Below, piece after piece: positions 43,479-45,195 of a stretch of 64,000 nt of DNA; the first letter of the stretch is position 1, and each line of letters starts with the position of its first letter. This stretch comes from a virus, in UHGV virus genome UHGV-0272730, one strand, 5' to 3'. The notes beneath the pieces were generated by a model. It was not told where the DNA came from and did no database searches. It saw only the letters and a program-made list of their open reading frames with translations. Position numbers and translations under genes: made by a program.

Positions 43479-43850
43479 ATGAAAGCTAAGAGTGCAAAAG
43501 ACTTTTATTGCTTCCTACAATCCTATATCAATTCCGTGCAAAATGGTGAAAGGTACAACCTTAATGATGTTATCCCAACACCTTTGACATGGAGACTCAG
43601 TAAATGGCCTGAAGAAGATATTACACCAACAATCGAACAGCGTACCTACAAACCTGAAATCAATATTCCAGACTCTGATAATCTATTATACCCAATGTTC
43701 CATATTGTTGGTCTTGGAAGATTCCTTATGGATATCCAGTATGTAATTGGTAAAGGTTATAAGGTTAAAGGTATTGTCGTTGGTGATGTATCTCCGAATC
43801 ACAAAGGTTATTTTAGACTAAACGCACATTTAGAGGCTGAAAAGAAATGA
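43479..43850 (+). CDS. hypothetical protein (123 aa), paralogous to N-terminus of next gene
   Basis: Shares KRY(N/D)...Y(K/D)P(E/D)...P.SD.LLY...F.MD(I/L)QY(V/A)I. with residues 1-120 of the following gene. Confidence 0.55.
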   Translation: MKAKSAKDFYCFLQSYINSVQNGERYNLNDVIPTPLTWRLSKWPEEDITPTIEQRTYKPEINIPDSDNLLYPMFHIVGLGRFLMDIQYVIGKGYKVKGIVVGDVSPNHKGYFRLNAHLEAEKK

Positions 43851-44731
43851 TTAAAGCAAAGACTTACCCAGACTTCAAAGAGTTTGTGAAGGGCTTCATT
43901 GCAAACGTAAAGGCTGGTAAGAGATATGATTTTAGAACATATCAAGAGGCTATTTTACCACTTACCTATAGTTCATATTGGCCTGAAGCTGATATTGCAG
44001 AAGTTGAGAAGTTTGACTACAAACCAGACTACAAAGTCCCATTTAGTGATGAGTTGCTTTACAGCGTTGGTGCTCAAATGAGAACTTCTGACTTCTTCAT
44101 GGACTTACAATATGCAATTATCAATGGTAAAGATGTTGATACAGTTTATTGTGAATGGCTGGCAAGGGTTAAACCATTCTCAATGTTGAATGCTAAGTTG
44201 AAGGATGCTATCAAGCCACCAGCAATTACTCAGCAGCCAACAGGTCAAACAGTTAATGAGGGTGGCACACTTACTCTAACCATTCTAGCAACTAACGCCA
44301 CTGGATATCAGTGGAAAAAGGATGGTGAGGACATCCCTAGTGCCAATTCTGCAACTTACACAAAACAGTCAGTAGCACCTTCTGACGCTGGTTCATACAC
44401 TTGTGTTGTATCTGGAGAAGGTGGAACAAGTGTTACCTCAGATGCAGCAACAGTGACTGTGAACGCACTACCTGTGATTACCAAGCAACCTTCTAACCAG
44501 ACTATTAATGAAGGTGGAAACATCAACTTAGCAGTTACTGCAACAGGTGCAACAGGTTACCAGTGGAAGAAAGGTGAGGAAGATATCCTTGATGCAACCG
44601 CTGCAACTTACACTAAAGAAGGTGCAACCGCTGCTGATTCAGGAAGCTACACCTGTGTAGTTACTGGTGCAGGTGGCTCTGTAACATCTAATGCAGCAAC
44701 AGTTACAGTTAACCCAGCAGGGGAGGCATAA
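43847..44731 (+). CDS. protein with two tandem Ig-like domains (294 aa)
   Basis: C-terminal duplicated about 85 aa units each with GYQWKK...TY...DSGSYTCVV...VTV. Confidence 0.65.
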   Translation: MIKAKTYPDFKEFVKGFIANVKAGKRYDFRTYQEAILPLTYSSYWPEADIAEVEKFDYKPDYKVPFSDELLYSVGAQMRTSDFFMDLQYAIINGKDVDTVYCEWLARVKPFSMLNAKLKDAIKPPAITQQPTGQTVNEGGTLTLTILATNATGYQWKKDGEDIPSANSATYTKQSVAPSDAGSYTCVVSGEGGTSVTSDAATVTVNALPVITKQPSNQTINEGGNINLAVTATGATGYQWKKGEEDILDATAATYTKEGATAADSGSYTCVVTGAGGSVTSNAATVTVNPAGEA

Positions 44732-45195
44732 TGCAACTCTCAAGAAAAGGTTTAGAGGCTATTAAGTTCTTTGAAGGTCTGAAGTTAGAGGCTTACGAAG
44801 ACTCTGCCGGAATCCCAACAATCGGGTATGGGACAATCCGTATTGACGGAAAACCTGTTAAGATGGGTATGAAAATTACTGCTGAACAAGCTGAACAGTA
44901 TCTTCTTGCAGATGTTGAGAAGTTCGTTGCAGCAGTGAATAAAGCTATCAAGGTTCCAACTTCTCAGAACGAGTTCGATGCACTTGTAAGTGAAACATAC
45001 AACATCGGTATCACAGCTATGCAGGATTCTACATTTATCAAGCGCCACAATGCTGGTAATAAGGTCGGTTGTGCAGAAGCTATGCAGTGGTGGAACAAGG
45101 TTACAGTCAAAGGTAAGAAGGTCACTTCAAACGGCCTGAAAAACAGACGTAGAATGGAAGCTGACATTTATCTTGACAGTGTATATCCAAAGTAA
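44731..45195 (+). CDS. endolysin, phage lysozyme (GH24-type)
   Basis: N-terminal catalytic pattern FEGLKLEAYEDSAGIPTIGYGT; 154 aa; start overlaps upstream stop (ATAATG). Confidence 0.8.
   Translation: MQLSRKGLEAIKFFEGLKLEAYEDSAGIPTIGYGTIRIDGKPVKMGMKITAEQAEQYLLADVEKFVAAVNKAIKVPTSQNEFDALVSETYNIGITAMQDSTFIKRHNAGNKVGCAEAMQWWNKVTVKGKKVTSNGLKNRRRMEADIYLDSVYPK

Follow-up and report, generated by a model that had tools for sequence, protein, structure and literature searches.

The 64,000-nucleotide stretch of virus genome UHGV-0272730 (the window) contains three adjoining genes which encode, in this order, a short protein of 123 amino acids, a protein of 294 amino acids with immunoglobulin (Ig)-like domains, and a GH24 endolysin. 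The 294-amino acid protein is very probably the hexamer decoration protein of Felixounavirus, and the 123-amino acid protein a tandem duplicate of its capsid-binding domain. Judged by its sequence, the former belongs to the Hex-Dec/gp20/gp36 hexamer decoration proteins of the Ounavirinae, which are already known and structurally solved in orthologues. The main result is therefore a correction, the 'tail protein' label of the 294-amino acid product being outdated for what is a structurally solved, Hoc-like capsid decoration protein. The residual novelty lies in the paralogue, which lacks Ig domains and the capsid-contacting arginines, and in how it evolved, the rest of the locus being already known. 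The region was found to be 99.9% identical to Escherichia phage vB_EcoM-Ro111lw, which identifies the window as a Felixounavirus genome; it matched 246 records, and many other Felixounavirus genomes are 94-96% identical to it. Phages of this genus are widely used for typing, biocontrol and therapy of Salmonella and E. coli.

A phmmer search of the PDB with the 294-amino acid protein gave an E value of 4.6e-245 to chain S of 9NCF (Bas63, 'Immunoglobulin-like domain protein', 460 amino acids) and of 1.1e-182 to chain S of 9C2D/9C3A (Sf14, 372 amino acids). Its AlphaFold2 (AF2) model, with a mean predicted local distance difference test (pLDDT) score of 85.5, was aligned by Foldseek with the capsid-bound parts of 9ncf_S and 9c2d_S at a template modelling (TM) score of 0.79 each. 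Arginines R79 and R107 are both present, as R79 is in 43/43 and R107 in 42/43 orthologues. Bas63 Hex-Dec, Sf14 gp20 and Felix O1 gp36 are true orthologues, the capsid-binding domain being 98% (Bas63) and 88% (Sf14) identical to that of the window. They also share R79/R107, the arrangement of an N-terminal anchor followed by an I-set array, the position 5′ of the endolysin gene and the preceding 123-amino acid gene, and they differ solely in the number of Ig domains. A comparison of repeat number among relatives, which the original prediction from the DNA sequence had proposed, revealed one domain in clusters of ~210 amino acids (in many uncultured relatives), two in the window, Felix O1, Moogle and SUSP1, three in wV8, UAB_Phi87, Silverhawkium and Sf14, and four in Bas63. 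The features of the Hex-Dec/gp20 family, namely the anchor, R79/R107, an array of one to four Ig domains and the gene position, are thus all found in the 294-amino acid protein. Pairwise ratios of nonsynonymous to synonymous substitution rates (dN/dS) among seven phages were 0.04 for the capsid-binding domain, 0.10 for Ig domain 1 and 0.08 for the endolysin.

The C-terminal part of the protein was matched twice by each of the Pfam families Ig_3, Ig_2 and I-set (Ig_3, E 1.8e-22), and the two domains share 65% identity over 82 amino acids (E 9e-36), in agreement with the two tandem Ig-like repeats of the original prediction. No repeat corresponding to them was found at the DNA level by Tandem Repeats Finder, since at 65% protein identity the domains are too diverged in DNA. 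The assignment as Ig-like was upheld by fold prediction. Both domains were modelled as β-sandwiches with pLDDT above 90, and the C-terminal half of the AF2 model superposes on the tandem Ig domains of Robo (Robo2), titin and MuSK. The predicted Ig fibre is acidic, with an isoelectric point (pI) of 4.3. The pseudo-C2 symmetry published for the capsid-binding domain was not visible in the sequence, because a BLASTP comparison of the two halves of the domain gave no alignment.

By cryogenic electron microscopy (cryo-EM), Bas63 Hex-Dec and Sf14 gp20 are monomeric Hoc-like decoration proteins, whose N-terminal ~118-122 residues occupy the centres of pentamer-proximal hexamers in a T=9 capsid and whose flexible Ig domains are unresolved in the capsid maps (PMC12609058, PMC11821841). 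The anchor is held by salt bridges of R79 and R107 to Asp221 of the major capsid protein (PMC11821841). Presence of the protein on the Sf14 and Bas63 virions was demonstrated by mass spectrometry and cryo-EM, and the same papers describe a decoration gene located >10 kb from the structural module and one to four Ig domains among felixounaviruses (PMC12609058, PMC11821841). Felix O1 gp36 ('tail protein', 31.6 kDa) was found at 44% coverage by mass spectrometry in 2010 in virions purified on caesium chloride, and its gene was noted to lie far from the other morphogenesis genes (PMC3185647). The Felix O1 numbering was checked: open reading frame (ORF) 36 is the orthologue of the 294-amino acid gene, ORF37 that of the 123-amino acid gene, and ORF35 the endolysin gene.

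By analogy with these orthologues, the N-terminal 122-residue domain in the window would plug as a monomer into the centres of the 60 pentamer-proximal hexamers, held partly by R79/R107 salt bridges to a ring of Asp221 residues, and the two I-set Ig domains would project outward as a flexible acidic fibre. As with T4 Hoc and T5 pb10, such a fibre might provide weak adhesion to surfaces, mucus or cells, or control of aggregation; an adhesion role of the Ig array, which the original prediction had also offered, is a published idea that is still unproven. In a PhageMaP screen, Bas63 gene 124, which is the orthologue of the decoration gene, scored as more essential when the host was E. coli S17-1 than with the three other strains in the comparison, and this stronger requirement hints at a host-surface effect of the fibre. 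Since the protein is non-essential and surface-exposed, it offers, as Hoc does, a natural platform for display.

The 294-amino acid protein carries the labels 'tail protein', 'putative tail protein' and 'major tail protein' in GenBank, RefSeq and PHROG 3995. That it is in fact a tail protein is most improbable: besides these labels, its Ig domains do resemble those of some major tail proteins (PHROG 158, 853), but the 98% identical orthologous domain has been modelled at the centres of capsid hexamers, and two independent cryo-EM structures agree on this location (PMC12609058, PMC11821841). This identity was rejected, the label resting only on promiscuous Ig domains and the orthologues being placed on the capsid by cryo-EM. 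Hardly more credible is a role of the pair in lysis, as holin, spanin or regulator acting with the endolysin, which was another of the alternatives of the original prediction. The two genes do adjoin the endolysin gene through overlapping start and stop codons; however, neither protein is matched by a lysis family of Pfam or PHROG, orthologues of the long protein are proven constituents of the virion, Erwinia phage M7 has a separately annotated holin downstream of its lysin, and holin candidates were proposed elsewhere in the genome in the Felix O1 paper. No evidence supporting a lysis role was found, and it was rejected. The third alternative, decoration of the virion by a protein whose gene lies away from the late module, is the one borne out by the cryo-EM of orthologues and the Felix O1 mass spectrometry. 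As to database usage, UniRef and RefSeq have spread 'tail protein' to both the 123- and the 294-amino acid genes, and 'capsid decoration protein' or 'decoration protein' is found in few records (Silverhawkium, KPS64, EP1).

The 123-amino acid protein showed 38% identity to the 294-amino acid protein over 101 amino acids in BLASTP (E 5e-17), and HMMER alignments to the solved orthologues stretched the homology to residues 2-117, in agreement with the earlier proposal that the whole short product is a paralogue of an N-terminal domain of about 120 residues. When the PDB was searched with its sequence, the only matches were the capsid-binding domains of 9ncf_S (E 1.5e-12) and 9c2d_S (E 5.9e-11), and the same two chains were the only significant matches of its model in a fold search (E 9e-4, TM 0.54 and E 1.5e-3, TM 0.56, respectively), all others having E above 1. 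The gene is full length in ~230 of 253 phage records from Felixounavirus, Mooglevirus and Suspvirus, and always lies directly 5′ of the decoration gene. Its dN/dS of ~0.13, obtained from the same seven phages at dS up to ~1.5, indicates purifying selection. The Bas63 and Sf14 structure papers make no mention of the paralogue (PMC12609058, PMC11821841), and the UAB_Phi87 and wV8 papers contain nothing relevant on it.

Alignment of the short family with the Hex-Dec domain gave 122 positions, 37 of them conserved and identical in both families and 43 variable. At the other 42, conservation reaches at least 90% in each family taken separately, and the two families differ. This conserved-but-different class is concentrated in residues 73-82 (8/10) and 92-113 (14/22), the segments bearing R79 and R107. 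Within the short family 79/122 positions are at least 90% conserved, and the protein is basic (pI 8.6) as compared with its acidic source domain (pI 5.5). The duplicate kept the hydrophobic core of the fold, and the two segments with the capsid-contacting arginines were recoded and then fixed.

A profile made from an alignment that included the Ig columns (210 positions) was swamped by giant Ig-repeat proteins and was uninformative on distant homologues of the capsid-binding domain. Homologues in Erwinia and Hafnia phages were revealed by a BFVD fold search and by a relaxed tblastn search for which this domain served as query; the latter showed one copy of the domain per record in 29 records of Erwinia phages and 3 of Hafnia phages. 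A homologue of gene 43, the decoration gene and the endolysin gene follow one another in this order both in Erwinia phage M7, a Kolesnikvirus, and in Hafnia phage SarahDanielle. No short paralogue was found in the Erwinia and Hafnia phages, M7 and SarahDanielle having no room for the gene. The anchor of the M7 protein (L012:2441-3058; gp008, corresponding to the phiEa104 BIG2 protein) is 32% identical (E 3e-15), with Arg at 79 and Lys at 107, and is fused to Big_2 (E 3.4e-20) instead of I-set; the SarahDanielle protein (L013:2501-3463; gp85) consists of the anchor and ~200 residues without a significant Pfam match. These proteins resemble that of the window in a homologous anchor and in the same place between the gene-43 homologue and the endolysin gene, and differ from it in the family of the Ig module and in lacking the short paralogue. 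As Big_2 is present in M7 and no Pfam match in the Hafnia protein, different Ig-like modules have been exchanged on a common anchor in the course of the subfamily's history, the type of module being, on this comparison, exchangeable. The gene order shared by M7 and SarahDanielle indicates that the adjacency of anchor and endolysin is ancestral to the subfamily.

The single-copy M7 outgroup retains R (79) and K (107), so that of the two copies the short one is derived. The distribution of the genes places the duplication, a tandem copy of the anchor alone, in an ancestor shared by Felixounavirus, Mooglevirus and Suspvirus, and the paralogue was lost later in one lineage of Felixounavirus. A remnant in which the start codon is destroyed and ~220 bp are deleted is carried by 19 independent records; these come from several countries and hosts and include REP5-12, mio, SP116, Z31, Tf, fBSPA4 and P54. 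Because only a remnant is left in these records, the paralogue is dispensable for a viable phage. For the decoration gene of Shigella phage Z31 (L004:2498-3070) the annotation gives two short ORFs, of 405 and 168 bp, and the paralogue of this phage is a pseudogene as well; either both genes are decaying there or the record contains sequencing errors.

Several observations weigh against the assignments made here. For the phage of the window itself, the evidence for a virion protein comes entirely from orthologues, and a biological role of the Ig fibre has yet to be proven for any member of the Ounavirinae. The AF2 model of the 123-amino acid protein is of moderate quality (pLDDT 62.7, residues 34-66 below 50), and no member of its family has Arg at the R79 and R107 columns, which contain Gly (48/50) and Gln/His/Asn instead. 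The protein is not on the Felix O1 virion protein list of 2010, compiled with a cut-off of at least 25% coverage (PMC3185647), nor, as far as the main text on VpaE1 indicates, is it among the extra proteins in VpaE1 virions. No chain for it is present in the Bas63 or Sf14 capsid models, though both phages encode the gene intact, that of Sf14 lying at 10500-10868 of MF327003, and both papers report no density on the hexamers outside the Hex-Dec sites (PMC12609058, PMC11821841). Finally, any role of the gene must be dispensable, since it is a pseudogene in the 19 records.

Taken together, the conserved core, the interface recoded and then fixed, late expression, translational coupling, the lack of detection in virions and the occasional loss point to an accessory protein whose specificity of binding has been altered. 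The 123-amino acid protein is accessory and dispensable; its site of action allows several readings. Tentatively, the duplicate may still act on the capsid shell, transiently, at another site or stage or in low copy, and not as a stoichiometric part of the mature virion, with procapsid hexamers or the 20 hexamers on the three-fold axes as candidate sites. If it does act on capsids, one capsid-binding plug would have diversified into two specificities, which might explain the decoration of only one hexamer class. It is unlikely that the protein is a morphogenetic or regulatory partner that sits, transiently or in low copy, at the hexamer centres unused by Hex-Dec, helping to set the 60/80 decoration pattern, or a soluble decoy. 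A soluble, late-made non-virion protein, which would use the scaffold to bind a host factor, a capsid-protein defence sensor or Hex-Dec itself, is a serious if somewhat doubtful possibility. The absence from two virion proteomes (that of VpaE1 as described in its main text) and two cryo-EM models would fit it, as would the replacement of both contact arginines within segments recoded and then strictly conserved, the shift in charge, and the purifying selection, according to which the protein does something. On the other hand, no partner is known, late co-expression and the coupled position 5′ of the decoration gene fit a morphogenetic role at least as well, and small low-copy proteins easily escape a coverage cut-off such as that of 2010. 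Should the protein not act on capsids, a structural domain would have been recruited to another role. The gene is very unlikely to be a decaying, functionless remnant of the duplication, as the damage in the 19 records and a dN/dS three times that of the source capsid-binding domain might suggest, for it is full length in the large majority of records from three genera, its dN/dS is low even at the largest dS, its family is well conserved, it has its own Shine-Dalgarno sequence, and its late transcript was detected in Felix O1 (PMC3185647).

The features of the locus are listed in Table 1. The three ORFs and the overlap of the 294-amino acid gene with the lysozyme gene (ATAATG) were confirmed in the sequence as the original prediction had them.

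Table 1. Features of the decoration/endolysin locus and its surroundings in the window.
Feature	Position	Strand	Description
tRNA gene cluster, 26 genes	34402-40187	-	Between the structural module and the divergent decoration/endolysin unit
G+C-rich hairpin	43440-43455	+	AGGGGC-TTAT-GCCCCT; between the upstream 196-amino acid gene and the short paralogue; read from the sequence
Short paralogue gene	43479-43850	+	123 amino acids, pI 8.6; Felix O1 ORF37, Bas63 bas63_0125, PHROG 4463
Ig-domain decoration gene	43847-44731	+	294 amino acids, 31.4 kDa; Felix O1 ORF36 (gp36), Bas63 bas63_0124, Sf14 gp20
Capsid-binding domain (residues 1-122)	43847-44212	+	98% identical to modelled 9ncf_S, 88% to 9c2d_S
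Ig-like (I-set type) domain 1 (residues 124-205)	44216-44461	+	Pfam Ig_3, Ig_2, I-set; pLDDT above 90
Ig-like (I-set type) domain 2 (residues 209-290)	44471-44716	+	Second Pfam stretch; pLDDT above 90
GH24 endolysin gene	44731-45195	+	154 amino acids; PF00959 Phage_lysozyme, E 6.6e-41; PHROG 7 endolysin
Intrinsic terminator	45205-45222	+	AGGCTCC-TTCG-GGAGCCT then TTTTTATTTT; terminator scan; closes the three-gene unit

The 123- and 294-amino acid genes share 4 nucleotides (ATGA), the stop of the latter shares one base with the lysozyme start (cATAATGc), and a Shine-Dalgarno-like motif precedes each of the three ORFs, including that of the 123-amino acid gene. The endolysin gene bears a lysin or endolysin label in the annotations of all relatives. 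The major capsid gene (27148-28260) is on the minus strand, opposite to the three-gene unit, with the 26 tRNA genes between them, so that the decoration gene lies outside the structural module, as predicted, and immediately 5′ of the endolysin gene, as in other members of its family. This placement, which the original prediction had considered unusual, is rather a conserved and previously published feature of the whole subfamily. The same gene order was found in Felix O1, wV8, UAB_Phi87, Moogle, SUSP1, Silverhawkium and Bas63, the three-gene order being kept across three genera.

The hairpin preceding the short gene was not called by the terminator scan and its T-run is weak; the homologous site of wV8 is annotated as a Rho-independent terminator, and the hairpin may be a leaky terminator. 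The wV8 site homologous to the intrinsic terminator after the endolysin gene is likewise annotated as a terminator, and a near-identical hairpin (t5) is in the Felix O1 terminator table at another genome position (PMC3185647). The scan gave no sigma-70-like promoter between the first hairpin and the ATG of the 123-amino acid gene, and over the region it gave fewer matches than shuffled sequence; no promoter is therefore claimed for the unit. The best sigma-70-like match of the region, TTGACA-17-TATCTT (10/12, 45173-45201, plus strand), overlaps the final endolysin codons and stops 3 nucleotides before the terminator hairpin; it may serve downstream genes or be a chance match.

Co-transcription of the pair with the endolysin gene, as proposed in the original prediction, is plausible, the codons overlapping and the strong terminator being found only after the lysin gene. 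In Felix O1, however, reverse transcription PCR showed maxima of ORF36 and ORF37 late (60 min) and of the lysin ORF35 at 25 min (PMC3185647), and because these maxima differ the three genes may not be strictly co-expressed. The decoration protein would be a late product, made along with the endolysin, and its small transcription unit lies ~10 kb beyond the structural module.

We know of no stand-alone copy of the anchor domain in T4. Like the decoration protein of the window, T4 Hoc is a non-essential monomer at hexamer centres with an Ig-like string projecting from the capsid, and the Ig part of the 294-amino acid protein, residues 120-292 only, matches the 'Hoc-like head decoration' family phrog_2973 (E 8.9e-28). 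In contrast, the capsid-binding domain of Hoc is C-terminal, topologically distinct and without sequence similarity (PMC12609058). The 294-amino acid protein works like Hoc and is not a member of the Hoc family, since its anchor is N-terminal, the topology is distinct and the PHROG match covers the Ig part only. T5 pb10 is similar in that a capsid anchor at its N-terminus precedes an Ig-like domain at its C-terminus, and differs in its single Ig domain and in an anchor which did not match. PDB entries 5LXK and 8ZVI ('Decoration protein'), which we take to be T5-type pb10, are similar in their Ig domain to residues 128-207 of the 294-amino acid protein (E 1e-11 and 6e-12).

Several minor observations concern the surroundings of the locus. 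The clustering of 26 tRNA genes at this place is usual for phages of the Felix O1 type. An adjoining ORF of 471 amino acids (40353-41768, minus strand) has orthologues annotated as 'RNA-binding protein' in RefSeq and vWA/DUF2828 in Silverhawkium, and may encode a Ro/TROVE-like protein beside the tRNA cluster. These Felix O1-type genes occur at 99% identity in a record bearing the name of a Staphylococcus phage (listed as SA1 in the VpaE1 table); the record is probably misattributed or contaminated. In the GenBank records of phages KhF1-3, the region homologous to 42800-45700 is annotated with 'direct repeat sequence2 posible binding site of StbAB'.

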